From the NCBI GenBank assembly GCA_963803805.1, contig CAWDOD010000001.1, positions 32,001 to 96,000 on the forward strand: a stretch of DNA of 64,000 nt, read 5' to 3'. Below the pieces are notes generated by a model. That model was not told the origin of the DNA. It searched no databases and was given only the letters and a program-made list of their open reading frames with translations. Shown one piece after another: positions 1-62,210 of this stretch. How positions within the stretch are numbered: the first letter of the stretch is position 1; the number at the start of each line of letters is the position of its first letter. Origin of the DNA: an uncultured cyanobacterium (GTDB lineage Bacteria > Cyanobacteriota > Cyanobacteriia > Cyanobacteriales > CAWCAG01). The translations under genes were made by a program, and so were the position numbers.

Positions 1-1527
1 GAGGGCATAGAGTAATTTATTCCATAGCCCAAACAAAACAGAAATATCTAACATATGAGGTAAATCTATTTTCCTAGCTTGGGATGGTACATTCGGTTGA
101 GAAGTTACCAGATTTTCTTGGTTAATAATTTCTGGAGTAAGATGCCATTGTGACCAAAGCAATTTGAGAGCTTTGTACTTTTCTCCAGACAGCCACTCAC
201 TAAACTTGTCTCCATCACCACGCCAACCCACAGTCCACTCAATAGTGCTTTCCCAACCTTTAGTAACATCACTATCCCAAATCTCTAGTAATTCGTGGTC
301 ATCAACATTACGTCTTTCTAAAGCACGGGGATGGTCAAACTGTTTGTAACTATCTATTCTCGGCATTCCCCATTCCTTCTTTTTACTAGAAGAATCAGGA
401 AAATAATCTTTTTCTAAAGCACTAATCTTTTGATTCCAAACTTGGGGGTCAACACCAGCATCACCTATCCAAGCCGCCGCCGCCGCAGTACGATCAGGAA
501 ATCTCTCCCATGGGCAAAAGGGTAAGGAATCCCTATTAACCCATAACCTAGTCAGGGTGGGACGAATAATCTCTGGTATAGATGCTAAACGCTTCACCAT
601 CTCCAAACTGTTCAGGCGATCGCTGCTAGAAAACAAACCCGCAAGATGAGTTTCTCGGCGTTGAGATAGTTTTTGCCACCAATTTTTGAGATTATCTTCT
701 GGCAATCCCCAAGTACCACCTTTGTCGATAGGTTTTAAGCCAGGATGCCATACAGAAAGAGAACCAGCACTAGGACTAGTTTTTCCGGCCCACCACTGCT
801 TTTGCCAGCTACGACCTATTTTTTGTGCCTCCAGATGTTGGTGGAGTTTGGCTAAGGTAGCTGTAATAGTTTCTGGATTACTGATATTGAGGGGGGCTTG
901 ACTAATATAAACTGACCAAAGGTGTTGACAATCTCCACGAATTACTTGCCACCCTACCCCATTTAAAAGGGTACGTTCATAGGAGATTGCCGATTGTTCT
1001 AAACAGCGTACAAATTCGCTCCATTCCCTTTGCACTATATCCTTTATTTCTTCTAACCAGCCCTTTTCGTTAGGAAAAATGCCAGTAAAAATGTTGGGTA
1101 ATTCTGCTTGCCAAAAAGATTCGTCTTGGTGAAACGACTCTTTTTTTAACCATTGCACTAAAGGTACAGAGCGATGTAGAGGTAACAACACTTTGCCCCC
1201 TCTCCGTTCCCAGTGATAAATTACTACAGCACTGAGATAGTGACAAAGCCAAGAACTTACAGCCCAATCCCTCAACCTTTGCCCACCTCCTAAAAAAGTT
1301 TGCACTGGGCCAAAGGTTAATACTCCCAACTGGTTTAAATTAGGATCAACACCCTCTAACTGTGCTGCTGTTTCTTGAGTTGCTCCCCCTCCCCACCAGA
1401 GTTGCGATCGCAAGTAAGCAGATTCTTGCCATTGCCCACTAAGGGGATGAATAGAAAGAGTAGGATCTTCTTGAGATACTTGAGTATATAATTCCCTTTG
1501 GCGTTGTAACCAAGTTTCTATTTGCAT
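1..1527 (-). CDS. cas10: Cas10/Cmr2 (type III-B large subunit), 3' end outside window
   Basis: Not in the ORF track; translated by hand from the ATG at 1527, which overlaps the upstream stop (TAATG). Gives MQIETWLQ...LTFGPVQTFLGGGQRLRDWAVSSWLCHYL (Cmr2 N-terminal PVQxF motif), DRLNSLEMVKRL and VGWRGDGDKFSEWL (palm DGD motif). No N-terminal HD domain; the GGDD motif would lie beyond the left edge. Confidence 0.88.
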   Translation of the reverse strand, partial: MQIETWLQRQRELYTQVSQEDPTLSIHPLSGQWQESAYLRSQLWWGGGATQETAAQLEGVDPNLNQLGVLTFGPVQTFLGGGQRLRDWAVSSWLCHYLSAVVIYHWERRGGKVLLPLHRSVPLVQWLKKESFHQDESFWQAELPNIFTGIFPNEKGWLEEIKDIVQREWSEFVRCLEQSAISYERTLLNGVGWQVIRGDCQHLWSVYISQAPLNISNPETITATLAKLHQHLEAQKIGRSWQKQWWAGKTSPSAGSLSVWHPGLKPIDKGGTWGLPEDNLKNWWQKLSQRRETHLAGLFSSSDRLNSLEMVKRLASIPEIIRPTLTRLWVNRDSLPFCPWERFPDRTAAAAAWIGDAGVDPQVWNQKISALEKDYFPDSSSKKKEWGMPRIDSYKQFDHPRALERRNVDDHELLEIWDSDVTKGWESTIEWTVGWRGDGDKFSEWLSGEKYKALKLLWSQWHLTPEIINQENLVTSQPNVPSQARKIDLPHMLDISVLFGLWNKLLYAL

Positions 1528-2972
1528 TAAAGACTTTCCTGAACTTCCGAGGTTAAGTTGTGGTAATACTTAATTCTTTGATTGACTTCCGTAGCTGCAT
1601 CAGCTAGATAAATAATGTATTTCAACCATTGCACTGCTACTTCTGAAGGGTGATTTTTGTTAGTTACGGAATGATATTTTTCGGTTTTTTTATCTAAACT
1701 TTCATCAATAACATCCCCTAGTAAAGAGTGATAAAGATTATTACGAATGTGGGTAAAAGCCATCTTAAACTCTGAATCTATTTCCCAACACCGACAATAA
1801 AACTGTTTAAAGTCTCTCCATTCAGCAGTGTCGGCTATAGCATCAACCTTGTGACCATCAAAATAACCATCACTTAGTAACTTATTAACCACTTTGCCGA
1901 TACTTAGAAAACGTCTATCACTACCTGGCTCTTTGCATTGCAGCTTTCCCCCTTCCCTTTGCCAAATATACTTTCCGAAACTTTGCTTTTCTACCAAACA
2001 CCACAAAGCCAACTCTAAAGCCCCTGCTATCCTCATATACCAGTGCATCCATTGCCCCCGCTCCCGAAAAGCCTTTTCACTCCAAAGAGCGATCGCTATT
2101 CTTTCAATCACTTCTTGTCTGGGAGTTAAGCCTAGTTTTAAAGCTGCGACATTTAAAGAGACTGCATAATCAAGAGTTTTTAACTTCTGCTCAATTCCTT
2201 CTGTTAAATAATTCTCCGCAATAGTCAAGACACCGCTAAAATCCTGAATAGCTATTAACTGTTGAATTTGCGGCACTTTCAACCGCCAGCGCCAATGATT
2301 ACCTTCGTGACTGTAATAGCGGGAGTTTTCTTTGGAGATATAAACAAATTCTACTGGTTGTTTGGCTAGCTTCTGCTCAATTCCCCATAGATACAAAGCG
2401 CTACTTAATGCCGGAGTACCACTACTATGTTGAATAACAATCTTTTCTATTTCAACTTTCTCTTCTTTGGTAGTTTGAAAGAAAAGAGTATTCTTCTGAG
2501 CTAGAATTAGTTGATTAAAACGTTGATTAACCAACTCTGCCATTCCTTCCCAATCTGCTGCACCTTTATCGATATGGGAACTAATTTCTAAGGGAATAGG
2601 ATAATAATTAATCTGCTGTTGTTTACACCAATACTCAAGAATATTACGCCACCAATAACCATCAGAAGCAATAATTTCTTGTATCGCTTGACTTTCTAGA
2701 TTCTGGTGACTCGCTAGCCAGCTACTTTGTTGAGTTAAGATTACTCCCAAATAAACATCTTCTTGCTTCCCTTCCTTTGCATATTCCTGCCAAACTTGGC
2801 GAATCTGCGGGAAATCTACCCTTTCTATTTCCTCTAACAATTCCTCATCATTTATCTGTGCTACCTCCTCAGCATCTTCTACTGTATAAGCTGTTTGCAA
2901 TCTTGCTGCCCCTTCATCGGAATCTACGAGAACATCACTGTTTCCCAAGACTTGCAGGATTAAAGTTTTCAT
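1527..2972 (-). CDS. CARF-HEPN type III CRISPR effector (Csx1/Csm6-like RNase)
   Basis: Rossmann-like start LILQVLGNSDV, CARF-like IVIQHSSGTPALSSAL, C-terminal HEPN RxxxxH motif (IRNNLYH); translationally coupled to cas10. Confidence 0.75.
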   Translation of the reverse strand: MKTLILQVLGNSDVLVDSDEGAARLQTAYTVEDAEEVAQINDEELLEEIERVDFPQIRQVWQEYAKEGKQEDVYLGVILTQQSSWLASHQNLESQAIQEIIASDGYWWRNILEYWCKQQQINYYPIPLEISSHIDKGAADWEGMAELVNQRFNQLILAQKNTLFFQTTKEEKVEIEKIVIQHSSGTPALSSALYLWGIEQKLAKQPVEFVYISKENSRYYSHEGNHWRWRLKVPQIQQLIAIQDFSGVLTIAENYLTEGIEQKLKTLDYAVSLNVAALKLGLTPRQEVIERIAIALWSEKAFRERGQWMHWYMRIAGALELALWCLVEKQSFGKYIWQREGGKLQCKEPGSDRRFLSIGKVVNKLLSDGYFDGHKVDAIADTAEWRDFKQFYCRCWEIDSEFKMAFTHIRNNLYHSLLGDVIDESLDKKTEKYHSVTNKNHPSEVAVQWLKYIIYLADAATEVNQRIKYYHNLTSEVQESL

Positions 2973-3186
2973 CTTCTAGGTTTGTAAGTTGTTTTCCTCG
3001 CTCAGAAACTATAGCTACACCACTTTTTGCTTTATTCAACTTAGATACTATCAGAAGTAGTAGAGAAAACCTAGAGTTTGATAATACTTTCTCCAATTGT
3101 TTAAATGCTTATGTCTTATTCTCCGACTAGCTTTTAAAGATTAAGCTTAAATATAATCAATATTATCTTTATCTTGACAGTCTCTT

Positions 3187-4344
3187 ATGACCAAAAAAAA
3201 TATCTACCACCGCTATAGTGACTTACTAGCTTTTGAGAGATTGATGATTTTGGTGGCTACCTTAGCCCGTTATCCAGGGGTAGGTAGCAGAGATAATCCT
3301 TTGTTGAAAAACCAAGACCCTTTGGAACAGTTATTAGCTATGATGCAGGAGGTAGCCACCGAAGTTGAAGTAGACTTACCTAACTATTCAATTCATACTC
3401 TCCGTAAAGATTTGGCCACACTACGCAACTATGGAATTTTGCAACAGCATATGTATCGCTGGGGCTATTATTTAGGTACTGGGGCTTTAGACAAGGTAGA
3501 GTTACGTTTTGCCCTCAATGCCTTGCGATCGCAGGTGGAATATCAAGAAGATCCTTTGGTTAGACAAACTTATAGCAAACTGAAACGGCGTTTACGGCAA
3601 TTTGATTTAGAAGAAGAGTTTAGTTATCCCCTAAGAACACAACTGAGTAAGGTTATTGTCTACACTAGTCCTGAAGAGATGATGCAAGAAGGTAAATATA
3701 GAGGGACTTTGTTTGAGAAGTTGGGGGAAATTGAGGAAGCAATTTTACAAGGACAAGCTATAGAAATAAAGCGAGTTCGTAATCCTCATCAAAAAGGTAA
3801 GGGACTCTTTTTACAAAGTATCTGGCCCTTACAGTTAATCTACCATGATATTGCCTGGTATCTTCTCCATGAGAACTATGAGAATGGTCATTTAGCTATA
3901 TCCCGTTTAGACCGTTTCAATGGTTATTATCAAGCTTTGGATGTACCCGCTAGGGGAATTCAAGCACAGCTAGAGAGTTTGCAAACGGCTAAGGAGTTGT
4001 TGAGAAATGGTTGGGGATTGTATTTAGGTAAGTTTGAGGAACAGTTAGAAGAGAAGGAAGGTAAGGGAAATTTAGTTGAGGTTAAGGTACGCTTTTTTGG
4101 TGATGCGATTGCTTTTGTTTTAGAAGGGGAGAAGCGTCATCATTCTCAAAGGATTAAGAAAGGGGCTATAGATGCAGAAGGTTGGCTTACTTGTATAGAT
4201 TATGAAATTAAGTTACCTCGGCGTTCCCTAAAAGAGTTTAGTTATTGGGTTAATCGTTTTTTTGGTAAAGCTGTTTTCAAGCAACCTAGCTTTATGGCAG
4301 AAGAGCAAGTTTCGCAGGCTAAGGCTTTGTTGGAAAGAGGGTAA
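3187..4344 (+). CDS. WYL-domain transcriptional regulator (wHTH-WYL-WCX)
   Basis: HTH TLRKDLATL, IWPLQLIYHDIAWYL, SRLDRF; divergent from the cas operon. Confidence 0.9.
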   Translation: MTKKNIYHRYSDLLAFERLMILVATLARYPGVGSRDNPLLKNQDPLEQLLAMMQEVATEVEVDLPNYSIHTLRKDLATLRNYGILQQHMYRWGYYLGTGALDKVELRFALNALRSQVEYQEDPLVRQTYSKLKRRLRQFDLEEEFSYPLRTQLSKVIVYTSPEEMMQEGKYRGTLFEKLGEIEEAILQGQAIEIKRVRNPHQKGKGLFLQSIWPLQLIYHDIAWYLLHENYENGHLAISRLDRFNGYYQALDVPARGIQAQLESLQTAKELLRNGWGLYLGKFEEQLEEKEGKGNLVEVKVRFFGDAIAFVLEGEKRHHSQRIKKGAIDAEGWLTCIDYEIKLPRRSLKEFSYWVNRFFGKAVFKQPSFMAEEQVSQAKALLERG

Positions 4345-4352
4345 GGGATTTT

Positions 4353-4552
4353 ACTGTCATTTAATGCCAGCTTGCGGCCACCTACCGGAATGGGCTGAAA
4401 CCACCATTTTACGTGGAGGCGGCCGACCTTTGATGGGGAGAGGGTTATAGCCGTTTTTGTTTCCCTTTTTCTTCTAGAGTTTGCTTAAGAAAAGGTAGGT
4501 GGCCGCAAAGCGCTTCTAGACACCAGGCAGGGTAAGGGTTTAAAATGAGGGG
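4353..4552 (+). promoter_or_regulatory. CRISPR leader 1
   Basis: 200 bp directly upstream of the first repeat, near-identical to 5708-5906 and 8440-8639; ends GGTAAGGGTTTAAAATGAGGGG; 15-bp inverted repeat 4372-4386/4494-4508. Confidence 0.85.
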
Positions 4553-4659
4553 GTCACGACTTCCTTTTGGAAGTAAAGAAGTTGAAACATTACAGTGTAA
4601 GAGACACGATTTTTATCAAAATCCGTCACGACTTCCATTAGGAAGTAAAGAAGTTAAAC
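4553..4659 (+). CRISPR. CRISPR mini-array 1 (2 repeats, 1 spacer of 36 nt)
   Basis: GTCACGACTTCCTTTTGGAAGTAAAGAAGTTGAAAC at 4553-4588; variant repeat at 4625-4659. Confidence 0.88.
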
Positions 4660-4804
4660 ACCCTGATGCGATCGCAAAATATGTATCAAACTGCGATCGC
4701 CTCTAGCAGTATTTAGAGTGAGATAGTTTTGCTGTACTGTAAAAGCTTAATATTAAGAAAGCACTGCTTATCTTTGTGTTTTTGTTACAATCGACTCTTT
4801 AATC

Positions 4805-5228
4805 ATGCCTGCAAAAGATATCTACCACGATACTGTTAGGACAGCTTTGCTCAAAGACCAGTGGACTATCACTCACGACCCTTTGAGAATTCGTCTTACT
4901 CGTGGAAAAAATCTTTTCGTTGATTTAGGCGCAGAGCGACTATTAGCAGCCCAACGCGGAGTTGAAAAAATAGCAGTAGAAGTCAAGAGTTTTGTCAGTC
5001 CTTCAGACATGAGAAGCTTGGAGGAAGCAGTAGGTCAGTTTGTCGTTTATGCTGAATTACTGAAGCGCTACTACCTGTGAGCATACACTATACCTAGCTG
5101 TTAGCGAGAAAGTTCGCAAAAATGTTTTTGAAGAGGAAGCTGGTCTAACTATGATTGAAAATGGCATCATTCGTATAGTTACCTTTGACCAAACTAAGGA
5201 GGAAATTGTGCAATGGATTCATCCTTAA
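4805..5228 (+). pseudogene. xisH: XisH family protein, +1 frameshift near 5076
   Basis: MPAKDIYHDTVRTALLKDQWTITHDP...DLGAERL...KIAVEVKSF. Stop at 5080, but the shifted frame continues EHTLYLAVSE...EEIVQWIHP* to 5228. Confidence 0.85.
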
Positions 5229-5551
5229 CCGAGTACCGCAACATCATCGAAAAAGTTCTACAGGACTATGCTAACTTTTTAGGGGGAGAACCAGAAGTTC
5301 AAATTGAATTAGTCTGCGATAGAGAAGGTAATCGCTACCTTTTAGTAGAGACAGGTTGGCAAAATGACTATCGCATTTATGGCAACGTGCTACACCTAGA
5401 CATTATTAATGGTAAGGTTTGGATTCAGCATGATGGAACAGAAGAAGGAGTTGCTAATGAGTTAATAGCAGCAGGTATCCCTAAAGAGTCTATAGTACTC
5501 GCTTTCCGCCATCCTCAAGTAAGAGAACATACAGGATTTGCTGTAGCTTAA
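5213..5551 (+). CDS. xisI: XisI protein
   Basis: HLDIINGKVWIQHDGTEEGVANELIAAGIPKESIVLAF; overlaps the end of xisH. Confidence 0.92.
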   Translation: MDSSLTEYRNIIEKVLQDYANFLGGEPEVQIELVCDREGNRYLLVETGWQNDYRIYGNVLHLDIINGKVWIQHDGTEEGVANELIAAGIPKESIVLAFRHPQVREHTGFAVA

Positions 5552-5942
5552 TCTTGCTTAAGTTGGTTTTTGAAATGATTTACCTTTTTGCTTTGAAAAT
5601 GGTTTGAGGTGAGGAATAATTAGCTAAGATTTGAGCGAATTTTAAGCTATAAGTCAGATAAAATAAAGCTTAGAGAGGATATTGCTATTACTAAAAAAGT
5701 TATTCCAACTGTCATTTAATACCAGCTTGCGGCCACCTGCCGAGATGGGCTGAAACCACCATTTTGCGTCGAGGCGGCCGACCTTTGATGGGGAGAGGGT
5801 TACAGCCGTTTTTGCTCCCTTTTTCTTCCAGAGGTTGCTTAAGAAAAGGTAGGTGGCCGCAAACCGCTTCTAGACACCAGGCAGGGTAAGGGTTTAAAAT
5901 GAGGGGGTCACGACTTCCGTCAGGAAGTAAAGAAGTTGAAAC
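5438..5942 (+). repeat. ~505-bp direct repeat copy 1 (3' xisI + intergenic + leader + first repeat)
   Basis: Highly similar to 8171-8675 by eye. Confidence 0.85.
5708..5906 (+). promoter_or_regulatory. CRISPR leader 2
   Basis: Near-identical to leaders 1 and 3. Confidence 0.85.
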
Positions 5943-6086
5943 ACTCTCTTGGCTAATTCCCTAGAAGCGCCATTTTTGTCGTCACGACTTCCTCTTGGAA
6001 GTAAAGAAGTTGAAACCCATGACAAAAAAAGTCAACTTTCGAGCTTCTGATGTCACGACTTCCACTAAGAAGTAAAGAAGTTAAAT
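5907..6086 (+). CRISPR. CRISPR mini-array 2 (3 repeats, spacers 38 and 35 nt)
   Basis: Repeats at 5907-5942 and 5981-6016, degenerate one from 6052; loops GTCA, TCTT, ACTA. Confidence 0.9.
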
Positions 6087-6493
6087 AACTTTATGCGATC
6101 GCAAAATATGTATCAAACTGCGATCGCATCGTTACACCTGGAGGGTATCGCTAAACATCTTGGTATAGAAGTAGGACGAAATCACAATATGCTAAGATGT
6201 TTTCCTAACAAAATATCAATAATAACTTATCTTCGAGACTTAACTTCTTTGTGCCAGCAAGAGACATTTATCATGACACCGTAAAACGTGCTTTAGAAAA
6301 GGATAACTGGACAATCACCAACGATCCTTTCCCCCTAAAAATCGGTAAGAAGCGCCTGTCTGCTGACTTAGGGGCAGAACGCCTGATTAGTGCGGAAAAG
6401 GGTATTAAAAAGATTGTTGTGGAAATCAAAAGTTTTGTTGGCCCCTCTAATGTCAAAGACTTAGAACAGGCTTTAGGACAATATATCTTGTAC

Positions 6494-7775
6494 CTAGCAG
6501 GGGGACATAAAGTCTAAAAAGTAGACAGAGCAAGTTCGACAGCACGTTGCCCTTTTTTGTAATGAAAAATCCAACGGCGATTAATTTGCAAAAGTTCTGA
6601 CAAAGTTTTTTGGCACAATTGCTGTAAGCGAAGCCAGTTATGAAGATGTTGACCAACATAAAAAGAGCTATGTTTGCGCTGTGCTTGATGAGCATTTTCT
6701 GGTCGTGCTACATATTTTTGGATACCCATACGCTTAATTTTTTGCCCTTGTAGTAGAGCGCTGGTATAAGCAATAGCTACAACAATTAGTAGTTTATTAA
6801 GCTGTTGTGAGTGAAGTTTGGAACCTTCAAGATTATATCCTCCTGCTTTAAAATCACGAAACATTTCTTCAATATCAAAGCGCTTCTGATAAGCTCGAAT
6901 TGCTGTGTCTACATCAGACAAATTAGTCAAGATATACCAAGGTTCTTTTGTTTTCAATCCTTGGTAGTTTCTTTTCCATTTCCCAGCAATATTGAAAGTG
7001 CCAAATCCTTTTTTCTTCGTCACCTGTTGGTTGCTCAGAAATAGCTTTGTACCAGGAGCTAAATCAAGTTCTCTTAGTTCTTGATATAAGCCGTTTTCAC
7101 ACTCAATCTTTGTGTCACATTTCTGTCTCAAACAAAAATATGTATCCTTCTGTCTCAGCCAGCTTGCCAGTTTTGGCGAACAAAATTCTCTGTCTCCTAA
7201 TATGACTAGTTTATTCTCCTGCCTATTCTCTGATAATAACTCTATACTTTTGCTTAATACTTCTTGCTGTTCTATGAGATTGCTACTTCCTTTTTTTGAC
7301 AAGAAACTCCAATATACTGGCCATGCTCTGTTGTCGTAGATTACACTCACCATCAAAATATTTATTATTCCCCAGCTCGTTCTGTCTATTGCCAAATATA
7401 TTGTCTCCTTTGGCTTTAACATCAGAGTTAATAAACACTTTACGCATTCAAACCATACACCCTCTATGCTTAATTGTTCCTTTCTTAAAAAACGCCGCAT
7501 TTTCTTGCGCCTGCTTTCAAATAATATCGGTATTGGTAGAGCTTCTGCTAATACCTCTAACTTCACTTGCTTGAGCATTTGAAGAGCTTCTACCACTAAC
7601 ATTAATAATAGACAAGTACTTTTACCCAATTCTTTTTCAATTATTTTCTGGTATTCTTTTGCTATCATTTTCTTTTACTAGGTCAGAGCTACTGTATCTG
7701 ACCTATCTTTTTTTTACCAGCACCACCGTTTCTTTGGCTACATCTAGCTCTTACTTCTCTGTGTACCCCTGCCAG
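6494..7775 (-). mobile_element. IS4-family insertion sequence (1282 bp)
   Basis: Imperfect TIRs CTAGCAGGGGGACA / CTGGCAGGGGTACA; 9-bp TSD ATCTTGTAC at 6485-6493 and 7776-7784. Confidence 0.9.
6514..7668 (-). CDS. IS4-family DDE transposase
   Basis: LAIDRT, LGDREF and YQKRFDIEEMFRDFK (YREK signature). Confidence 0.9.
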   Translation of the reverse strand: MIAKEYQKIIEKELGKSTCLLLMLVVEALQMLKQVKLEVLAEALPIPILFESRRKKMRRFLRKEQLSIEGVWFECVKCLLTLMLKPKETIYLAIDRTSWGIINILMVSVIYDNRAWPVYWSFLSKKGSSNLIEQQEVLSKSIELLSENRQENKLVILGDREFCSPKLASWLRQKDTYFCLRQKCDTKIECENGLYQELRELDLAPGTKLFLSNQQVTKKKGFGTFNIAGKWKRNYQGLKTKEPWYILTNLSDVDTAIRAYQKRFDIEEMFRDFKAGGYNLEGSKLHSQQLNKLLIVVAIAYTSALLQGQKIKRMGIQKYVARPENAHQAQRKHSSFYVGQHLHNWLRLQQLCQKTLSELLQINRRWIFHYKKGQRAVELALSTF

Positions 7776-7945
7776 ATCTTGTACCAACAAATTCTTGACA
7801 AGATGGGTATAGAAAGAAGCCTTTACTTAGCTATTTCTCAACCAACCTTTAACAGTGTATTCAATATAGAATTAGGACAGATGTTACTAGAAAATCAAGT
7901 AGTCAAGTTGATTATCTTTGATGAGCAAAGTGAGGCAATAGTAGA

Positions 7946-8284
7946 ATGGATACCCGATTAAACTACCAAAAGATTATTCAAACTGTTCTTCAAGATCATG
8001 CTGACTATCGTAATAGCTTCTTAGATGGTTACAATTGTCAGCTTCTTTTTGATCAACAACGAGGTCAATACTTAATTTTAGATATTGGCTGGCAAGGAGA
8101 TCAATATCTTCATGCAACTCCTATTCATCTTAGTTTAATTGATGATAAAGTCTGGATTCAGTCTGATGATACAGAAGAAGGAGTTGCTAATGATTTGATG
8201 GCAGCAGGTATCCCTAAAGAGTCTATAGTACTCGGTTTCCGCCATCCTAGAATAAGAGAACATACAGGATTTGCTGTAGCTTAA
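7946..8284 (+). CDS. xisI: XisI protein (second copy)
   Basis: IHLSLIDDKVWIQSDDTEEGVANDLMAAGIPKESIVLGF. Confidence 0.92.
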   Translation: MDTRLNYQKIIQTVLQDHADYRNSFLDGYNCQLLFDQQRGQYLILDIGWQGDQYLHATPIHLSLIDDKVWIQSDDTEEGVANDLMAAGIPKESIVLGFRHPRIREHTGFAVA

Positions 8285-8675
8285 TCTTATTTAAGTTGCT
8301 TTTTGAAATGATTTACCTTTTTGCTTTGAAGATAGGGTTGGTGAGGAAAGATTAGCTAAGATTTGAGCAGATTTTGAGTTATAAGTCAGATGAAATAAAG
8401 CTTAGAGAGGATATTGCTATTGCTGAAAAAGTTAGTTCAACTGTCATTTAACACTAGCTTGCGGCCACCTGCCGAGATGGGCTGAAACCACCATTTTACG
8501 TGGAGGCAGCCGACCTTTGATGGGGAGAGGGTTACAGCCGTTTTTGTTCCCCTTTTTCTTCCAGAGGTTGCTTAAGAAAAGGTAGGTGGCCGCAAACCGC
8601 TTCTAGACACCAGGCAGGGTAAGGGTTTAAAATGAGGGGGTCACGACTTCCTTTTGGAAGTAAAGAAGTTGAAAC
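8171..8675 (+). repeat. ~505-bp direct repeat copy 2
   Basis: Highly similar to 5438-5942. Confidence 0.85.
8440..8639 (+). promoter_or_regulatory. CRISPR leader 3
   Basis: Near-identical to leaders 1 and 2. Confidence 0.85.
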
Positions 8676-8828
8676 ATCTTTAATGGCTGAGATTATCCAG
8701 CGTTCTTATTTTGAAGTCACGACTTCCTTTTGGAAGTAAAGAAGTTGAAACACCTCACACATCGCTTTGCTGAAGCGTCCATCTCCTCCGCCGTCGTGAC
8801 TTCCATTAAGAAATAAAAAAGTTGGGTT
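8640..8828 (+). CRISPR. CRISPR mini-array 3 (3 repeats, spacers 40 and 41 nt)
   Basis: Repeats at 8640-8675 and 8716-8751; degenerate GTCGTGACTTCCATTAAGAAATAAAAAAGTTG from 8793. Confidence 0.9.
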
Positions 8829-9300
8829 CTGTAGAACCAGTTTTTGGGCAACCAAAGCAGTAATTACCGGAACTGCTTTTGTATTAGACTTTATCGGAAA
8901 TAGTGGAGAAAGTGATTGAGGCGATCGCATCTTCCTCTAACTTTTACTGGTTATGCAACTTGCAACACTTCACTACCTCTTTTGGAGCGGTGAGTAAGGC
9001 GGAAATTATGCAACCCACAGGCTGTTTCCATCACATCATCACCTAAAGTGAGCTAACCAATTGCGGAACTTTTGTACCACAATCTGACACCTCTTGATAC
9101 CTCCTATTTGAGAAAGTTTGGTCTGGTTAGAGTTATTTTAATGGGGCTTTTTAAGAAAATCAACTGATTTACCTTTTGGCTTAAAGATAAATTAGTTATG
9201 GGTAAGTATGATGTTGATTTTGGGAAGTTAATGGCAGTTAATGCCTATGGATATTACCTCTAGGAGTTTATTTTAGTTAGCTAAAAAGCTGTTTTATTTA

Positions 9301-9496
9301 TCATTTAAGTCTAGTTGCGGGCCATCTCAGAAAATCTCTGAAACCCCCATTCTTTCGTTGAGATGGCCCATCCATTGCTCTGTAAGGATTTGAGGCACTT
9401 TTTTCCTGTTGCTTTATTCGTCAACATAGATGTTTTTAGGGGATGGCCCGAAACCGCTTCTAGACACTATGCAGGGTAAGGGTTTAAAATGAGGGG
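9301..9496 (+). promoter_or_regulatory. CRISPR leader 4 (diverged)
   Basis: Same proximal ~47 nt (AAACCGCTTCTAGACAC...GGGTAAGGGTTTAAAATGAGGGG); distal part diverged. Confidence 0.8.
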
Positions 9497-9824
9497 GTCG
9501 TGACTTCCATTAGGAAGTAAAGAAGTTGAAACCGCATAAAGCCAGGTTGCGCTGTTTTGTATCATACAGTCGTGACTTCCATTAGGAAGTAAAGAAGTTG
9601 AAACGAGGGTTATTTGCAGAAGCTAGTTCGTTGCTTTGTGTGTCGTGACTTCCATTAGGAAGTAAAGAAGTTGAAACAACTAGTTCCTCCAACAGGTAGG
9701 TCGAGGAGATATTCGTCGTGACTTCCATTAGGAAGTAAAGAAGTTGAAACAATATCATAGCGCGTGGTGCGGCGTGATCCATCATCACGTCGTGACTTCC
9801 ATTAGGAAGTAAAGAAGTTGAAAC
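9497..9824 (+). CRISPR. CRISPR array 4 (5 identical repeats, spacers 36, 37, 37, 38 nt)
   Basis: GTCGTGACTTCCATTAGGAAGTAAAGAAGTTGAAAC at 9497, 9569, 9642, 9715, 9789. Confidence 0.97.
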
Positions 9825-10795
9825 CTCTCAACTATGAAAAGTGCGATCGCGAAATATTAGTCATACCAAATATTGCGATCGCAATATTTGCAGCATAAAA
9901 ATCCTCAAACTCTGCTGCGGTGTAGCCTACCCTCACCAACAACCTACGCTATTACCAGATCGAATATGACCAGAAAAAACAAGCAAACACCAGAAAAAGA
10001 TCATCAAACCTTCGCCGCAGAAAACAAGATTGCTCGTCAACTTATCACCAAATTTTCCCAAGCTTTCATAAGTTGGTTTCCCTTCGGAAGTAGTGGCTTT
10101 GCCTTAGTTTCCTTACTTCTCAAACAAGAATGGTTCATCACCTTTCTGGTTTTCCCCCTCATGATCATCAGCATCGCTTGGGGAGCTTTCACCACCAGCT
10201 TTTTGAAGCAAATCCAACACCATGCCCAAGAAATTGGTCAAGAAAGTGCAAACGCTTTTGTTAGGTGGCTAAGAGCTATTGCCACCGCCCTCAAATGGCA
10301 ACTGGCAGGGGTAGAGGATAAATACTTGCAATGCCAAGGAAACGCTTGCCTTTATTACACCACAGAAGGTTATCAAACCACCTTCAAACCCTTGCTCCAA
10401 GATGTCTTTGTCCCTTTAGAATTAAGCCCTAACTTTTTCCGGGCTGCTACTGGAGAGTATGTCCCGATGGTTGGTGGTTATGGAGGAGAAATGCAAGGGG
10501 AAGAGGGGTTTACTATTTGGGATGTTTTACAAAGGACGAAAACTAATCCTACCTACCGCAACCTGGTGATTTTAGCTTTAGGAGGTTATGGCAAAACCAC
10601 TTTGTTGCGACATATCACCTATACCTACAGTCAGAAAAAACTATTAAGAGGTGTTCCCAAACTCTTGCCAGTGTTGCTACTACTCCGCAAGTGGCAAGCC
10701 TTGATAGTTAAGGAAAAACCTGACCTTGTTACTCTGATTGAGAAATATCATCTTCCTTCCCTGCCTCAAGGAAAAGATTTATCAATACCTAATAA

Positions 10796-12103
10796 GGGAG
10801 TAGCAAAGAAAAGAGATACCATGTAGGAAGAGTAGAGGAAGAGAAGTAGAGAGAAAACAATGGCACGGACAAAGATAGAACTACCAGCTAAAGTGCAAGC
10901 AAGTCTCAAAGATGCCTCAAGGAAACTAACAGGAGTAAAGAAAAGAGCGTTTATAGCGAAGGTAACATTGGACTACTTTAATGGTAGCCCAAGACAAGCC
11001 GAAAGCTATATGGGTTGGTCAAGAAAAGCAGTAGCTAAGGGGTTAGAAGAATTAGAAACAGGAAGAATCTACCAGGACAATCATCATGACAAAGGAAGAA
11101 AGAAAACAGAACAAAAGAATCCTCTCCTAGAAGAAGATATACGTTCTCTGGTAGAAAACGATGCTCAAGCAGACCCAAAATTTCAGACAGTATTTTGTTA
11201 TGCCAGAAAAAGTGCCAGAGCAGTGAGGGAGGCATTAGTAGAAGAAAAAGGCTACCAGAGTGAAGAATTACCTTCTCGACAAACCGTAGGAGCAATCTTG
11301 AATCGGATGGGATATCGTTTAAAAAAACACAAAAAGTCAAACCCCTAAAAAAAATCGAGGAAACTGATGCGATCTTTGAGAATGTAGCTCAAAGGAAGAA
11401 CGAATCAGACTGTAACCCCAAATCGTTGAGAATATCGATAGATTCCAAAGCCAAGGTGAAAATAGGAGATTTATCAAGGGGAGGATACGACAGAAATATT
11501 GAAGCCCCCAAAGCCTTAGACCATGATTACCAATCCCAAGCTACTTTAGTACCCTTTGGTATTCTTGATGTGCTAGGGGAGCAACTGTGGATTTATTTCG
11601 GACAGAGCAAGGAAACAACGGATTTTGTCGTTGATTGTTTAGAACAGTGGTGGAAAGATAACGGTGATGGTTACGAAGGTATAGAAGAATTAATGATTGA
11701 GTTAGATGGAGCCGGTCAAATTCGTAGTAATCGCACTCAATTCATCCAGAGAATTGTCGCCTTTTCTCAACAGAACAACTTGAAAATTAGGTTAATTTAT
11801 CACCCTCCTTATCACAGTAAATATAACACTATTGAGAGGTGTTGGGCTTGTTTAGAAAACTACTGGCGTGGAGCCGTATTAGATTCGAGAGAAGCAGCCA
11901 TTGCTTGGGCCAAAAATATGACCTGGAAGGGAGTTAAACCAATAGTAGAATTAGTGGAGAAGACTTATCAATCAGGTATAGTCCCAAGTGTAGAAGAGTT
12001 AGAAACGAGCAAACAGAGTTGGCATCCTTGCCCAAAGTTACCATGCTGGGATATCAGCATTATGCCCCAGGTCTAAGTGGTACTTTATTTCTTTGCTAGC
12101 CCC
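10796..12103 (+). mobile_element. ISAzo13-family insertion sequence (1308 bp)
   Basis: TIRs GGGAGTAGCAAAGAAA / GGGGCTAGCAAAGAAA; 3-bp TSD TAA at 10793-10795 and 12104-12106. Confidence 0.85.
10860..12076 (+). CDS. ISAzo13-type transposase in two frames (10860-11348 and ~11330-12076)
   Basis: QADPKF in orfA; RISIDSKAKVKIG, ALDHD, YHPPYHSKYNTIERCW in orfB; A-rich junction near 11321-11354. Confidence 0.8.
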
Positions 12104-13561
12104 TAACTGGGTAAAAAATCTCCTCCATCAAAATAAGATGCTTATTATGTTAGATGGATTTGATGAGGTTAAACAGGAGTGGCGACAAGAAGTGGGACAA
12201 TGGATTGCTGAGGTGATGCACCACTACCCTGGTGCTTGTTTTATTCTCACTTCCCGACCTACAGGCTACCAAGCTTTTCCCTGTGAGAATCAACCTAATC
12301 GTTTACGAATCAAGGCTTTTAATCAAGGACAAAGGGAGAGGTTTATTCAAAGTTGGTATTTGAGTCGGGAAAAGCAAGTGAGTGCTAAACCCTACAATCC
12401 TGTAGTTAAGGAGGTTGCTAAACAAAAAGCAGCTAATCTGATTCAGCAGTTACAAGCTAGGACAGAGTTAAATGATTTGGCTCAAAATCCTTTGTTACTG
12501 AATATGATTGTTAACCTCCATAGCGTTGCACCCACAGACCACAGTGATTTGTCTCGCCCTATTCAATTGCCTCAAAGGAGAAAGGAACTTTATCGAGATA
12601 TTTTCCGTTTGCAGTTAGGGGACAGACCTACGGTTAAGCAGGTTGATATGTATTTAGAGGCGGAAGAGTCGCAACAAGTGCTACAAAGTCTCGCTTTGTC
12701 TATGATAAGAAATAATCAATCTACCCTTCCCTATGAACTCTTGCTTCAGCAAATTAAAGAGAGTTTGCAGAATTACAACTTCTCTGTCACTCCCCAGCAA
12801 TTTCTGCAACAGATGGTTGATGTCAGTGAACTTTTGGTTAAACGGGATGAAGATTATGAGTTTGCCCATTTGAGTTTCCAGGGTTATTTAGCTGCCCAAG
12901 AAGTTCACCGCACCCATCAGGAAGATTTGTTGATTGAGCATTGGCAAAATCCTTGGTGGCGAGAAACTATCCTCCTCTATGCAGCACAGTTTAACCCTAA
13001 CCAGTTACTCAAACAGTTGATGAAGTTGGGAACCCAAGAAGCAGTGGCTTTAGCACTCACCTGTATTAAAGAAACTCTGCGGCAAGTTGACCCAGATATA
13101 GAACAGGAGCTTAAAAGTTTAGAGTTAGAAATTCAAAAACTACTCTACAACCCTTTGAAAAGTTATTTAGCTAACGGGCAATGGCAAAAGGCGAATCAAG
13201 AAACTAATCGCGTTATGGTTCAAGTGGCTAAGAAAGAGCCAGGAGAACTTTTGGAGCTAGAAGATATAGAGAGGTTTCCTTGTCAGGATTTAGGGATTAT
13301 TGATGATTTGTGGGTTCAATATAGTGGAGAGAAGTTCGGTTTTACTGTGCAAAGGGATATTTGGTTAAGCTGCGGTGGTCAAGTAGGAATATACGAACCA
13401 GATGTTTATGAAAACTTTGCTACCCAAGTTAGATGGTATGACCGGAAGCAGCAGCAATGGTACAAGGAAATAGAGTTTAATCTTGATACTACTCCCCCAG
13501 GTCATTTACCAACCCTTTACTCTATCGCTTCTACCCATAAAGTCCATCTTTTTTCCCGTAG

Positions 13562-14482
13562 TCATTGTAGTAAGCTTTCAATCTGACTTAGCAGTTTTTC
13601 TATTTTCTTTTGCTTCTTGGGATCATTCCAACAATTGGAAGAATTAAGCCGACGGTAAGCTCTCCCTAGTCTATCTTTCAAAGAAGAAGACTCTACTTGG
13701 GGTACAATAGCCCTAATTTTTGCTTTGATTTGGGAAAGAGAAAGATTATTCTCAATTGCTTCTGCTAATAACTCTTTCCTAACCTCCAAATCCTTAACTT
13801 TGGCAATTGCAGTAGCTTTTGTATAAGCTATTTGTCCCTTCCTTAGAACCTCAAGAATTTCTTCTGGCAACTTTCTTAAAGGAAGACGGCTTTTAACAAA
13901 TGACTCCCAAGTTATTGTTCCAAGAGAATTAAATAACTCCTTGATAGCTTCTCCTTGAGAGCTACCCAAAACGTTTTGGGTAGCTTTTCCCTTGACCTCA
14001 TTTTCCATTCGATAGAGCAAAGAAGTAGCTTCAGGTAAGGTTTTATTTAAACGTAGGGCCAACAGTTGTAAAATCCCTTCTGTTTCTTCTATAGCATTAA
14101 GATCCACTCGTTGGAGATTTTCAACTAAGGCCAACTGCTGTGCCTCTTCATCATTAAGCTCTTTAATAACAACAGGCACTTCTTCAAGTTCTGCTTCAAT
14201 AGCTGCACGGTAACGCCTCTCTCCAGCAACCAACTCATACTCTCCCACATTCAGAGGTCTAACTAGCAGGGGTTCAAGAATGCCATGTTGCCTCACGGAA
14301 GCTATTAACTGCTCCATTTTTTCTGGGTCAAAGTAGCGTCTAGGCTGTTGACGGGGCTTTTGAATTAAACTGATAGCGACTGATTGAGTAGCCGCTTCTG
14401 TAGCAGGTTGGTCAAGAAGTCCTGCTATACCCTTAAGTTGACTGGTATAAGGTTCATCTTTTTTTTTACGTGTAGTTGCCAT
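13562..14482 (-). CDS. parB: ParB/Spo0J partition protein
   Basis: QPRRYFD, LVAGERRYRAA, ENLQRVDL. Confidence 0.95.
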   Translation of the reverse strand: MATTRKKKDEPYTSQLKGIAGLLDQPATEAATQSVAISLIQKPRQQPRRYFDPEKMEQLIASVRQHGILEPLLVRPLNVGEYELVAGERRYRAAIEAELEEVPVVIKELNDEEAQQLALVENLQRVDLNAIEETEGILQLLALRLNKTLPEATSLLYRMENEVKGKATQNVLGSSQGEAIKELFNSLGTITWESFVKSRLPLRKLPEEILEVLRKGQIAYTKATAIAKVKDLEVRKELLAEAIENNLSLSQIKAKIRAIVPQVESSSLKDRLGRAYRRLNSSNCWNDPKKQKKIEKLLSQIESLLQ

Positions 14483-53031: not shown

Positions 53032-54831
53032 TCAATTTTGTGTTCCATTTAATGAGTCTTTGAAGCTAACTTTGGTACTTAATATCCAAAGACGAAATAG
53101 TTCAATAGTAATAGAATACTTACCTTCTTTATTGGTCACTATCTCATTATGAATCAGAAGTTCTAAATCCGATGATAACAGTTCCTCTGATTCAGATTTT
53201 TTTGTTCTCTCAATTAATTCTTCTAAAGTTATTCCTTGTTTTTTACTAGCTATTGACTTTAGAACTTCTTCGGCTGATTTAGTTGTAAGGTCAAAAAGTA
53301 AGATGCTTTCTGACCATAGCTGCTTAAAACAATACTCTCCATACTTTGTACTAAATAATTTTCCGTCATCAATTAACTTATTCACATCGTCGCTAGTAAA
53401 TGAATAATTTCTGACCGCACTTTGTTTGGTTTTGTCACCATAGTGTACAAGAAGATATCCTATAATTTGTACAGAGAAAGGATGCCCATGGGTTAGCTCG
53501 TATATTATTTTTACTGCTTCATCAGTATATGTTCTAAACTCCTTTAAAACAGCATCAGTTTCCTGTAAAGATAGAAAGCTAACTCCAACAGGAACTAAGT
53601 CAGAGAAGAAGTCTGTCAAGTCAGTAACAGCAATATCAGAAGCGGTAAACGCTCCATAATATTGTGTACAGCAAACAGCCAACCCTACTCCAGAGGGTAC
53701 ACATCTTTGTAGGTAATCTATAAAATCATCAGAAATATATCCTTCTGATATCAAATCTAACAGTACTTCAAACTCATCTAAGGCGATAATTAGTTTTTTT
53801 GAATGTTCCTTCTCTACTTTTGCTAGATAGACTCTGAAGGTATCATAGGGCTGTTCTAACATCTCTTCATTGCTAGGAAAGGTAATAGCCGTAGCATCAG
53901 CAATACTATCTGCGATCGCAATTAATAATTCATCATCTTCAGGAAATTGATTTAAACGAGCAACAGCTTTTAAATCGAGGTAAGCAACTGCTACCTTATT
54001 AATCAAACGTTGGGAGGCATAATGTATTAATGAAGTTTTGCCTATGCCAGGTTGCCCGAATATAATTGTTGAAGACTTGTTGTCCCTCATCCAAAATTTC
54101 TCAAGTTTTCGTAAAATATTTTCTCTACCTTTAAATTGCTGTCTAGTCTCTTTGACATGAACAGGAATTAACTTGTTTAGAAAACTTGTCAAGTTAGGGA
54201 TAGGAAGATTAGGGAAAACAGACTCTACTGATTTACTTGTACAGCAAATAGCAAATGCCACTTTAGGTGATAAACATTCTTGCAGATAGTCTGGTAGATT
54301 GCGAGGAAGCCTGTCTTTCATGATTAGTTCTAGCAAAACCTCAAACTTATCCAAAACAATAACTAAATTGCCTTTAAGTTCAGCTTCTACTTCTGTTAAG
54401 TAATTTTTGAAAATTATGTAGGGCTGTTCCAGCATTTGTTGTTCACTAGGAGGGGCAATAGCTGTAACCTCAGCAATACTACTTGTAATTGCAAGCAACA
54501 ACTCGCGAATTCCGCCACCTCCTAGAGCAAAGTTCGGTAAGTTAAGGTAAGCAACAGTTGCTTCTGTTGTAGATAAAAGATGGGTAATGTGTTGTATCAA
54601 AGGGCTTTTTTTCGGGTAAGGCTTACTATGGACGATAAGCGTCGGTTGGACAGTTTGCGCTTTCCAATATTCCTGAAGCTTTTGAAGATAAGGAAATAGC
54701 CCTTGAAACTGATTTTCAGGGCCAATACTGTCTAGTGTGTAGGGATTATCTTGCTCTATTAATTCCTTAACTGCTGTAGAAGGTATCATCAAATCTATTA
54801 TTGCCTGTAAAGGGTTTACATTTTGTGTCAT
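53032..54831 (-). CDS. Tandem P-loop ATPase (degenerate + intact domain) with wH-like C-terminus
   Basis: Second domain FKGRE..GQPGIGKTS..IALDEFE..GHPF; first domain lacks Walker A. Confidence 0.75.
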   Translation of the reverse strand: MTQNVNPLQAIIDLMIPSTAVKELIEQDNPYTLDSIGPENQFQGLFPYLQKLQEYWKAQTVQPTLIVHSKPYPKKSPLIQHITHLLSTTEATVAYLNLPNFALGGGGIRELLLAITSSIAEVTAIAPPSEQQMLEQPYIIFKNYLTEVEAELKGNLVIVLDKFEVLLELIMKDRLPRNLPDYLQECLSPKVAFAICCTSKSVESVFPNLPIPNLTSFLNKLIPVHVKETRQQFKGRENILRKLEKFWMRDNKSSTIIFGQPGIGKTSLIHYASQRLINKVAVAYLDLKAVARLNQFPEDDELLIAIADSIADATAITFPSNEEMLEQPYDTFRVYLAKVEKEHSKKLIIALDEFEVLLDLISEGYISDDFIDYLQRCVPSGVGLAVCCTQYYGAFTASDIAVTDLTDFFSDLVPVGVSFLSLQETDAVLKEFRTYTDEAVKIIYELTHGHPFSVQIIGYLLVHYGDKTKQSAVRNYSFTSDDVNKLIDDGKLFSTKYGEYCFKQLWSESILLFDLTTKSAEEVLKSIASKKQGITLEELIERTKKSESEELLSSDLELLIHNEIVTNKEGKYSITIELFRLWILSTKVSFKDSLNGTQN

Positions 54832-54878
54832 TTTAGTATCCTATAAATAGTCTAGTTGTGTTGTGCAGCAGTCACTAC

Positions 54879-55035
54879 TTTTAGTAACTCTAAACTATCT
54901 TCAATTAATTGGTTGTTGCTGTGTAGTGCAGCTTTATCTTCTAAAGAATCTAATACCCTCGATGGTGGGTAAAACTTAGTTGATAGTTGAGTAAGCATAT
55001 TTGTCCTTGTTAAATTAATTATACTTACTACTCCT
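54879..55035 (-). repeat. 157-bp partial duplicate of 56992-57148 (remnant of the 141-aa gene)
   Basis: Direct near-identity read by eye. Confidence 0.85.
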
Positions 55036-55096
55036 CGATAAGATAAAAACGTTATACTAACTTTAGGTTAAAGTTATGCAAAAATGAAGCAAAATC

Positions 55097-55351
55097 ATGA
55101 ATGATTTAATCAATAAAATCAACTATAACCTACTTTCTAAAATTTTCCTTACTTGGCTTTTTATCTTCCCTTCATTCGTAGGAATAGGTACTCTTTCAAT
55201 CTACGCTTTAGAGCGTTATTTTGGCATCGTTACAGTCGAGATTGATCTACTATTACAAGTTAGCGCTTTTGTTGCTGCAATTGTTATTAGCTTCTTTCTT
55301 TTTATTCTTTTTACGAAACTTGCCGCTTTTGTTATTTCCTTTTGGGAGTAA
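55097..55351 (+). CDS. Small two-TM protein
   Basis: 84 aa, two hydrophobic helices. Confidence 0.5.
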   Translation: MNDLINKINYNLLSKIFLTWLFIFPSFVGIGTLSIYALERYFGIVTVEIDLLLQVSAFVAAIVISFFLFILFTKLAAFVISFWE

Positions 55352-55388
55352 AATTAAGCTGTTTACTCACTATTATCTTGTTCTTCTA

Positions 55389-56951: not shown

Positions 56952-56964
56952 TTGTCACAATCTT

Positions 56965-57390
56965 TCAATTATATTGTGCAGAAGCTACTAGTTTTAGTAA
57001 CTCTAAACTATCTTCAATTAATTGGTCATTGCTGTGTAGTGCAGCTTTACCTTCTAAAGCATCTAATATTCTTGATGGTGGGTAAAACTTAGTTGATAGT
57101 TGAGCAAGCATATTTGCCCTTGTTAAATTAATTATACCTACTACTCCTTGAACAGAATTAGCAGTTTTAATAAAATGCAAATTCTGCTCAATATCCATAT
57201 TTGCCTTTAGTACTATGGGTATTATTTCTAAGTCGGTTCTAGCGAGGTAATAGTTAAATAACGGTAATGTGACATTACTAACTTCTTCTACTGCTTTAGT
57301 GTGACTCTCTAAGCTTTGAGCATGAGATAACAAGGCATTGGTAAATAGAAAAACGACTAACCCTATGCAAGTTTGTTCTAAGATAAACAT
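56965..57390 (-). CDS. Secreted hypothetical protein
   Basis: Signal-like N-terminus; 3' part duplicated at 54879. Confidence 0.55.
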   Translation of the reverse strand: MFILEQTCIGLVVFLFTNALLSHAQSLESHTKAVEEVSNVTLPLFNYYLARTDLEIIPIVLKANMDIEQNLHFIKTANSVQGVVGIINLTRANMLAQLSTKFYPPSRILDALEGKAALHSNDQLIEDSLELLKLVASAQYN

Positions 57391-57474
57391 TATTACTTTT
57401 TATTAGTTAGGTCATTGCTAAAACAATTATACATTTGCTAGAATAAAAGTCACTCATATTTATAGTTTTTTAGC

Positions 57475-57753
57475 GTGGGTAGATTTGAAGATCGTCAGCA
57501 TAAAAAGCAGCAACTGGACAAAATAAATTCAGTTGCTAATTCGGTTTTCAATATTTGCAATTGGTTCATTTGCTATTTCTGTTTGCTTCTTGTACTTATT
57601 CTGTTTTTCTCAGAGAGCGAAGATCCTGAAATTGTCTATTTTCTAACTGGGCTTTTACTTCTGGGATTTGCCGCTTGTCCGCTTATAGACTTTGAGAAGT
57701 ATTGGTTTTTAAAGTGCGTGACTGGGGTACTTGGAATTATTTTACTTAGTTGA
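57475..57753 (+). CDS. Small membrane protein
   Basis: 92 aa, about three hydrophobic segments. Confidence 0.45.
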   Translation: MGRFEDRQHKKQQLDKINSVANSVFNICNWFICYFCLLLVLILFFSESEDPEIVYFLTGLLLLGFAACPLIDFEKYWFLKCVTGVLGIILLS

Positions 57754-58166: not shown

Positions 58167-58168
58167 CT

Positions 58169-62145: not shown

Positions 62146-62210
62146 GATTTAGAAGGTTTGCTCATTGTTTTAATTTGGTTTAGAAGTAGTGCTTAAAATG
62201 CTACTGTGCT

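Follow-up and report, generated by a model that had tools for sequence, protein, structure and literature searches.

Organization of the locus

The DNA analysed here (the window, 64,000 nt) comes from an uncultured cyanobacterium and corresponds to G000:C1:32001-96000, a part of a 160-kb contig (C1) of the source genome (G000). Near its left end it carries a CRISPR locus. Four leaders of ~200 bp, each with a mini-array, lie there in tandem at 4353, 5707, 8440 and 9297 and are followed by 1, 2, 2 and 4 spacers, respectively. This row was already noticed in a preliminary description of the window and is confirmed here.

Leader 1 (L1; 4353..4552, plus strand, as are all leaders and arrays of the row) contains three short boxes, box A at ~4372-4386, box B at ~4413-4423 and box C at ~4494-4508, as well as a promoter-like TAGACA-18-TAAAAT at 4517-4546. 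Mini-array 1 (A1; 4553..4660) consists of two repeats, the second ending in GTTAAACA, with one spacer at 4589-4624. It is followed by two HIP1 octamers with 17 nt in between (4668..4700). The resemblance of leader 2 (L2; 5707..5906) to other leaders of the genome does not stop at its upstream end but continues for ~70 nt into the spacer DNA that follows xisI-1. Mini-array 2 (A2; 5907..6087) has three repeats and two spacers, and the HIP1 pair behind it (6095..6127) is a copy of 4668-4700. Leader 3 (L3; 8440..8639) is followed by mini-array 3 (A3; 8640..8828) with two good repeats, a degenerate third repeat of the array-4 variant and two spacers. After A3 a terminator-like hairpin with a T run is found at 8825-8838. 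Leader 4 (L4; 9297..9496) precedes array 4 (A4; 9497..9824), which consists of five identical repeats and four spacers, and behind which two HIP1 octamers lie 24 nt apart (9843..9882). Altogether, HIP1 octamers start at 4668, 4693, 6095, 6120, 8921, 9843 and 9875. A HIP1 pair as a general trailer of arrays was rejected, as it is present only behind arrays 1, 2 and 4 of eight inspected.

L1-L3 share 93.5-96.0% identity and are thus near-identical as described before; a correction is needed for the third array, the last repeat of which is degenerate and of the A4 variant. L4 is only 69-70% identical to L1-L3 and probably represents an older paralogue. Together with ~36 nt of its first repeat it matches the leader of array C1:22542 on the same contig at 94% identity (232 nt). 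The repeat is 36 nt long with the 3’ end GTTGAAAC and occurs 13 times across A1-A4. The four loop bases of the repeat hairpin vary from repeat to repeat in A1-A3 (4553-6087 and 8640-8828; TTTT, ATTA, GTCA, TCTT, ACTA), while the 6-bp stem and the 3’ handle remain constant across the mini-arrays. All nine spacers (35-41 nt) are unique, as stated in the preliminary description, with shared stretches of ≤8 nt between any two. In the source genome, second matches to the spacers do not exceed 19 nt, and phage or plasmid collections gave no near-perfect (megablast) match to any of them. The source genome holds six more arrays with the same repeat and the same kind of leader, i.e. ten arrays in all; two of the six are copies within a large inverted duplication. 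A scan of the whole window against Rfam gave no family at gathering score.

Different cargo follows the arrays. In module 1, xisH-1 (4805..5226, plus strand) contains a frameshift near 5070-5080 such that Pfam XisH positions 1-88 and 87-134 are matched in two frames. A metagenome contig is identical letter for letter to this region (4757-5089). The adjoining xisI-1 (5213..5551, plus strand) is an open frame (Pfam XisI, 6.3e-42) that shows ~90% DNA identity to xisI-2 from ~5407 on. In module 2, xisH-2 is split into a 5’ part (6251..6494, plus strand; Pfam XisH positions 1-81) and a 3’ part (7776..7961, plus strand; positions 79-134) by an IS4-type insertion sequence (IS) of 1281 bp (6495..7775, minus strand). 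This IS has terminal inverted repeats, a transposase at 6514-7668 and a 10-bp target duplication ATCTTGTACC at 6485-6494 and 7776-7785. It is a single copy in the source genome; in the metagenome run X1 the same IS is found at ~4x the depth of the neighbouring DNA and with other flanks on both sides. xisI-2 (7946..8284, plus strand) is again an open frame (Pfam XisI, 4.6e-38). XisH (PF08814) and XisI (PF08869) occur as an overlapping pair, and both xisH copies of the locus are disrupted.

The cargo of module 3, called an unrecognised stretch before, is 468 bp without a gene (8829..9296). No relative of 8829-9106 was found elsewhere in the source genome, and for 9107-9296 the DNA that precedes another leader (C1:27051-27239) is a homologue (73%). 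At 8885-9037 the stretch shares 88% identity with G027:C9:1005627-1005778 from a genome of the same genus.

Behind array 4 lies a gene for a membrane-anchored NACHT-GUN4 protein. Its 5’ part (9873..10826, plus strand) carries Walker A, its 3’ part (12093..13586, plus strand) Walker B along with Pfam matches to NACHT positions 76-163 and GUN4 (4.6e-33). In between an ISAzo13-type transposase is encoded (10860..12076, plus strand; frames 10860-11348 and 11426-12076; Pfam DDE_Tnp_ISAZ013). In the same-genus genome G027 the gene is contiguous, with 42 nt between the two parts. Both parts belong to a single NACHT-GUN4 gene that the ISAzo13-type element has split.

Hence the cargo identities given before are correct for xisHI-1, xisHI-2 and NACHT-GUN4, but xisH-1 is frameshifted, and xisH-2 as well as NACHT-GUN4 are split by IS elements. 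Of the four cargo genes by which the modules differ, three are disrupted. Long open reading frames (ORFs) of 2128, 1084 and 791 aa are preserved in other parts of the window, and for this reason we take the gene breaks at the locus as real, though they come from a single assembly. The locus is decaying: xisH-1, xisH-2, NACHT-GUN4 and three genes of the neighbouring cmr operon are broken.

An assembly artefact, i.e. one leader-array unit wrongly expanded, is given hardly any chance by us. In its favour, none of the contigs from X1, the only public run with this stretch (low depth), spans two modules, and the contig begins with a large inverted duplication that may itself be due to assembly. However, artefactual copies would be near-identical. 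The copies found here are 4-13% apart with nine different spacers, different cargo and a clean IS with target duplication; such divergence combined with unique spacers renders a collapse or expansion artefact unlikely.

Mosaic structure of modules 1-3

Module 1 was aligned to module 2 with the IS removed, and identity was evaluated in 50-nt windows. It amounts to ~90-100% over most of 4352-4703, a part that holds the leader, the first and terminal repeats and the HIP1 pair, with a drop to 2-76% in the unshared spacer part (~4552-4653). As a whole, leader, array and HIP1 of modules 1-3 reach ~90-96% identity. Across 4704-5406, a region of ~700 bp comprising xisH and the 5’ 60% of xisI, identity is only 30-64%. 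It returns to 84-100% over 5407-5930, a tract that starts halfway through xisI, crosses the spacer DNA and reaches into the following leader. The 3’ portion of xisI and the DNA behind it (145 nt of xisI and ~155 nt thereafter) are ~88-90% alike between the modules. Both breaks are sharp. The left one is located 0-3 nt after a HIP1 octamer in both modules, so that the homology of module 2 with module 1 stops 0-3 nt past the HIP1 pair. The right one lies within the reading frame of xisI; no HIP1 is found at the right junctions. On the protein level XisI-1 and XisI-2 share 67% identity in their C-terminal halves and 32% in their N-terminal halves, and the latter are no nearer to each other than to other paralogues (20 compared). 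A divergent interior (30-64%) between flanks of ~90% bears out the earlier view that the row did not arise by a simple tandem duplication.

Each of the two xisHI cassettes is bracketed by copies of the leader, mini-array and HIP1 unit; the flanking copies are 320-484 bp long. We compared other xisHI loci of the source genome. Direct repeats flank three of 12 (55-87 bp, 85-93% identity, 10-223 nt from the genes), as compared to 9/300 in a control with random sites. One of the three is a duplicated gene end, another has copies that begin at HIP1. Selfish cassettes that insert with a long target duplication have been proposed for restriction-modification complexes. Like those, the xisHI cassettes are small nuclease-type units of two genes between direct neighbour copies, with a HIP1 junction and no integrase. 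Unlike those, the duplicated target would be a CRISPR leader with the start of an array and much longer (320-484 bp), and the two cassettes share one 3’ end.

Based on this analysis we consider it somewhat more probable than the reverse that the locus represents a type III-B array cluster that has proliferated (become ‘fragmented’) on a conjugative plasmid and in which the duplication of L1-L3 is tied to the xisHI cassettes. Units 1-3 would trace back to an old duplication of a segment made of leader, first repeats, terminal repeat and HIP1 pair. Most likely this duplication was a by-product of the insertion or recombination of xisHI cassettes that lack an integrase. The left junction would lie at a HIP1 site, and the right one would go back to a homologous exchange within the 3’ part of xisI, which is conserved. 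Unit 4 would be an older paralogous array. After the duplication the spacers of the arrays presumably turned over; the lack of shared spacers between copies that are 4-13% apart fits such an independent turnover. Decay would have come later, by IS insertion into xisH-2 and NACHT-GUN4 and by frameshifts in xisH-1 and cmr3/4/6. While the anatomy, the mosaic, the leader family and the enrichment of flanking repeats are shown, the start sites, the competence for acquisition, the sequence of events and a causal contribution of the cassettes are inferred.

A plain segmental tandem duplication, brought about by unequal recombination between CRISPR repeats or leaders of sister plasmids, is a serious rival. 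Here xisH and the 5’ part of xisI would have been replaced later, and xisHI would be mere passengers without a role in the crossover. The repeats of 36 bp and the leaders of ~240 bp are ready substrates for recombination, and with 25 XisI and 18 XisH matches in the source genome enough partners are available for exchange. Sharp breaks are consistent with recombination tracts, and A3 is itself a chimera of two repeat variants. Moreover, recombination between arrays is described as a route of array evolution in the available text of PMC4524480, which counts for this explanation. On the other hand, no donor for either divergent segment was found in the source genome, the best paralogue reaching 68-72%. 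A tandem duplication predicts neither HIP1 at the left break nor an enrichment of flanking repeats (3/12 vs 9/300). We hold it to be possible but rather unlikely.

Several observations weigh against a duplication driven by cassettes. L3-A3 lacks the terminal repeat and the HIP1 pair of copies 1 and 2 and ends in a degenerate repeat of the array-4 type, thus a plain target duplication does not suffice without further exchange. The two cassettes have a ~89% identical 3’ end, which is unexpected from independent insertions and would need gene conversion or unequal crossover between two occupied sites. Flanking repeats occur at just three of the 12 other xisHI loci and are short there (55-87 bp vs 320-484 bp at the locus). 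Arrays with this leader in other genomes are not accompanied by xisHI (0/20, see below), so the link may be a one-off. No empty site or variant allele was found; the locus is missing from the same-genus genome and has no near match in plasmid or phage collections. Finally, the frameshifts are derived from one assembly, with independent contigs covering only xisH-1 and stemming from a run that may be the source sample.

A leader family with a predicted promoter and a three-copy word

The region upstream of all ten arrays of the source genome can be aligned over ~200 nt. An alignment of 30 leaders from nine genomes plus the leader of pSYSA CRISPR3 (L047:34890-35112) of Synechocystis revealed a conserved order of blocks over ~200 bp. 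Leaders of other genera align over their full length, yet head at least five other repeat families. To assess the distribution, a pattern derived from the last 31 nt of the leader was scanned in 401 genomes of the order with the reversed pattern as control. It was found in 47 of the 401 (G000 included), as opposed to four matches counted for the reversed control. A blastn search with the leader across the 401 genomes recovered just its last ~50 nt. As judged by these alignments, the leaders of the window belong to a widespread cyanobacterial family that includes the pSYSA CRISPR3 leader.

The sigma-70-like TAGACA-18-TAAAAT ends 6 nt before repeat 1. It scores 10/12 in all four leaders, and in none of the units does the region contain a better promoter-like site. 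According to the available text of Scholz et al. 2013 (PMC3575380), transcription of CRISPR3 (III-Bv) starts 1 nt before the first repeat and the leader upstream is untranscribed. We checked the published coordinate on the pSYSA sequence (L047), where it indeed falls 1 nt before repeat 1, and the promoter-like motif of the window leaders aligns with the CRISPR3 promoter. The CRISPR3 leader resembles those of the window in its alignment over the full length (~200-213 bp), in the order of the blocks and in the promoter, a predicted one in the window, right before repeat 1, as far as the text of that paper covers it. By analogy the leader would be an untranscribed module of ~200 bp, and transcription from its promoter would be expected to begin at repeat 1.

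Upstream of the promoter one word of 10-15 nt is present three times: forward in box A at ~-185 and as reverse complement in boxes B (~-135) and C (~-55). All three boxes exist in the four window leaders and at the same places across the aligned leaders, as well as at L047:34900-35104 and L048:11098-11310. The word itself varies between leaders, yet its three copies stay alike inside any one of them. Boxes A and C show 75.1% complementary cells as opposed to 27-50% in slid controls, none of 500 shuffles being as high, and 13 of 15 pairs have changed on both sides. For boxes A and B the value is 71.5% (28-47% when slid). A coupling of the word to the repeat family was rejected: four words are found with one family in G000 and three with one family in G103, while in G197 one word serves three repeat families.

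RNAalifold predicts a stem of A and C in the leader. However, G.T cells (15) are not in excess over A.C cells (14-17), and the homologous Synechocystis leader is untranscribed. Hence we rejected an RNA helix and regard the boxes as a feature of the DNA. The possibility that boxes A and C are the terminal inverted repeats of a miniature inverted-repeat transposable element was likewise rejected, since the interior is conserved while the supposed ends vary.

A hint to the function comes from the leader of pSYSA CRISPR1 (I-D). Stepwise removal of its motifs III, II and I lowers spacer uptake by Cas1-2 in E. coli, as stated in the available portion of Kieper, Almendros and Brouns 2019 (PMC6607411). 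The I-D leader shows the same triple layout with the words TTTGGCA, TGCCAAA and TGCCAAAG at the places of motifs III, II and I, i.e. the window leaders share with it three motif places whose loss cuts uptake there; motif II probably equals box B, as suggested by the stated position of this motif. The three boxes thus most likely serve the docking of Cas1-2, if the analogy holds. The repeats of the two Synechocystis systems differ from those of the window. In so far as their text was available, both Synechocystis papers (PMC3575380, PMC6607411) treat the motifs as conserved words and not as one co-varying word in three copies. In the literature reached by our search, a rule of one word in three leader copies was not found stated.

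With a full-length leader, a promoter-like site and three boxes in each unit it is reasonable to assume several promoters and several acquisition sites. The earlier proposal that the leaders act as such is therefore plausible by homology to the Synechocystis leaders: each module may plausibly have its own promoter and its own site of spacer acquisition.

Two further observations concern the leaders. Contigs of run X1 carry leaders near-identical to L1 and L3 (window 4175-4556 and 8639), one of them with the end of the WYL gene that precedes L1. They continue from the leader into different repeats, indicating that relatives attach the same leader to other repeat families. Leaders reduced to the promoter-proximal 50-100 nt are found before a single repeat or no array at all in G197, G400 and G065 (L032, L043 and L044) and look like relics of arrays.

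Distribution of the layout and role of the cargo

Two leader matches less than 16 kb apart were not found in the 400 other genomes of the order, among the places listed. Hence loci that vary in the number of modules and in cargo, as envisaged in the preliminary description, do not turn up among these genomes. Neither does its association of leader and cargo extend to relatives: in six other genomes, 20 arrays that follow this leader (1-50 repeats) all lack xisH and xisI within 4 kb, and the chromosomal paralogue in the source genome has single arrays. A homologous array locus is present neither in G027 (same genus) nor in G059. A blastn search with 3100-10000 against the plasmid collection returned just pieces of IS, WYL and xisH. 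The WYL protein gave one relative (46%) in a search against genome contigs; the contig of this relative ends behind the gene. In the literature reached by our search we found neither a paper linking xisHI to CRISPR arrays nor anything relevant on duplicated or internal leaders.

The preliminary description compared the row to an integron, with the leader-array units serving as boundaries and promoters for the capture, swapping and co-expression of defence or toxin-antitoxin cassettes. Integrons (intI, attI, Pc, attC) are indeed similar with respect to serial, co-oriented units, an upstream promoter and variable inserts between conserved boundaries. At the locus, arrays and cargo are co-oriented, and a ~700-bp interior of xisH and 5’ xisI is exchanged between conserved flanks. 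Furthermore, no promoter-like site is found in the 100-120 nt ahead of either xisH and no intrinsic terminator after arrays 1, 2 or 4, thus read-through is conceivable and array transcription possibly runs on into xisH/xisI. Unlike integrons, however, the locus has no matched integrase, no attC-like site at the cargo ends and one boundary in a gene, and no variation of cargo is seen among relatives. A tyrosine recombinase is matched neither among 50 window ORFs scanned (21 + 29) nor in the scanned ORFs of C1:1-36 kb. The right boundary is inside xisI, and the inverted boxes are located in the leader upstream of the promoter rather than at the ends of the cargo. By the places listed, the layout is unique among the 401 genomes, with none of the 20 other arrays accompanied by xisHI. 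Moreover just two of the cargoes are alike in kind; the third is the gene-less 468 bp and the fourth an ordinary, IS-split gene of chromosomal type, intact in a sister species. An integron-like platform for defence genes is not supported, and we regard it as improbable.

The position of two xisHI pairs directly behind arrays, perhaps co-transcribed with them, might also suggest that xisH-xisI are functional accessory genes of the type III system, e.g. a nuclease module fired or regulated by CRISPR. Against such a role both xisH copies are broken. The 12 other xisHI pairs compared within the genome all lie away from arrays with this repeat, none of the 20 arrays elsewhere is associated with xisHI, and the literature search yielded no paper on xisH/xisI and CRISPR by title or abstract. 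This explanation is very improbable.

The cmr operon and the plasmid

The row of leaders is accompanied by a cmr operon at C1:27216-34972 with Pfam matches to Cmr2_N, Cas10 palm2, Cmr4 and RAMP. Inside the window it comprises the 5’ part of cas10/cmr2 (1..1527, minus strand), which leaves the window and encodes 740 aa in the genome (Cmr2_N, 1.5e-13; the full ORF also matches Cas10-Cmr2_palm2), and the first gene of the operon (1527..2972, minus strand; 481 aa). The latter has no family above threshold and a weak CARF-like match (E 0.007), and is 73% identical to the first gene of a paralogous operon on the chromosome. The cmr3-, cmr4- and cmr6-like genes of the plasmid operon are each found in two or more frames. 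Thus the type III-B operon described before does exist, as seen from the cas10/cmr2 and RAMP matches, but three of its cmr genes are frameshifted. The chromosomal operon is located at C2:427694-436714 and shows 65-81% amino acid identity; there cas10 and cas1 are split, and the single arrays of this locus have 14 and 16 repeats. Two further cas1 genes are found on the plasmid at C1:130784 and C1:133285, the latter within a frame of 664 aa. The only Cas6 match of the source genome is at C10:322616.

Between the cmr operon and L1, a gene resembling WYL-type regulators (3187..4344, plus strand) is oriented divergently from the operon and stops 8 nt before L1. Its matches to HTH_DeoR and WYL are below threshold. 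Homologues on plasmids are annotated as WYL domain-containing, and 74% identity is shared with a gene next to the chromosomal locus.

The window contains parA/parB, a coupling protein, a relaxase and a TrbI-like gene, on account of which we read the replicon as a conjugative plasmid. Left of the window, C1:1-13065 is an inverted copy of C1:27203-14287 (identity of 98% for the outer 5.8 kb and of 90% for the inner 7 kb) that includes two arrays with their spacers. The arms contain fragments similar to ResT/TelK telomere resolvases (L011 9586-10546). A hairpin-ended replicon or a genuine palindrome could account for the inverted duplication, and so could the assembly. Further right, four STAND/ATPase_2-type NTPase genes in a row and a radical SAM gene on the minus strand (53032-63233) possibly form a defence island.

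Discussion

Filamentous cyanobacteria are reported to have many more arrays than cas operons, each cas operon being accompanied by numerous short arrays that belong to one repeat family. In the available text of Reimann et al. 2020 (10.1101/2020.04.14.041012) this fragmentation is regarded as typical of them, and the mechanism by which arrays fragment and multiply is called unknown. The locus resembles such fragmented arrays in its short arrays of one repeat family, each of which is seemingly a unit of its own. In contrast to those, as far as the text covers them, the four units lie head to tail within 5.5 kb with a full leader each, and the duplicated segments and their breakpoints can be read; leaders and xisHI are not treated in the available part of that work.

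The locus has retained its seams. Whole leaders were copied and not repeats alone, and the breaks lie at HIP1 and inside the paralogous xisI. With these seams, what had been a loosely defined tendency towards fragmentation becomes a recombination model that can be tested. At the same time, the comparison of leaders ties the arrays to two experimentally studied leaders of Synechocystis. We consider the duplication seams and the co-varying leader boxes the most promising outcomes of this analysis.

Taken together, we tentatively propose that xisHI cassettes spread with long target duplications and thereby multiply leader-array units, and that the leader works via three co-evolving copies of a word that position Cas1-2 on DNA without integration host factor (IHF). 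That both parts apply jointly we would call unlikely at present. If true, target duplication driven by cassettes would be a concrete genetic route to the proliferation of arrays in filamentous cyanobacteria. Likewise, a leader built around an arbitrary word in three copies, one in inverted orientation, would represent an organising principle of CRISPR leaders in organisms that lack IHF.

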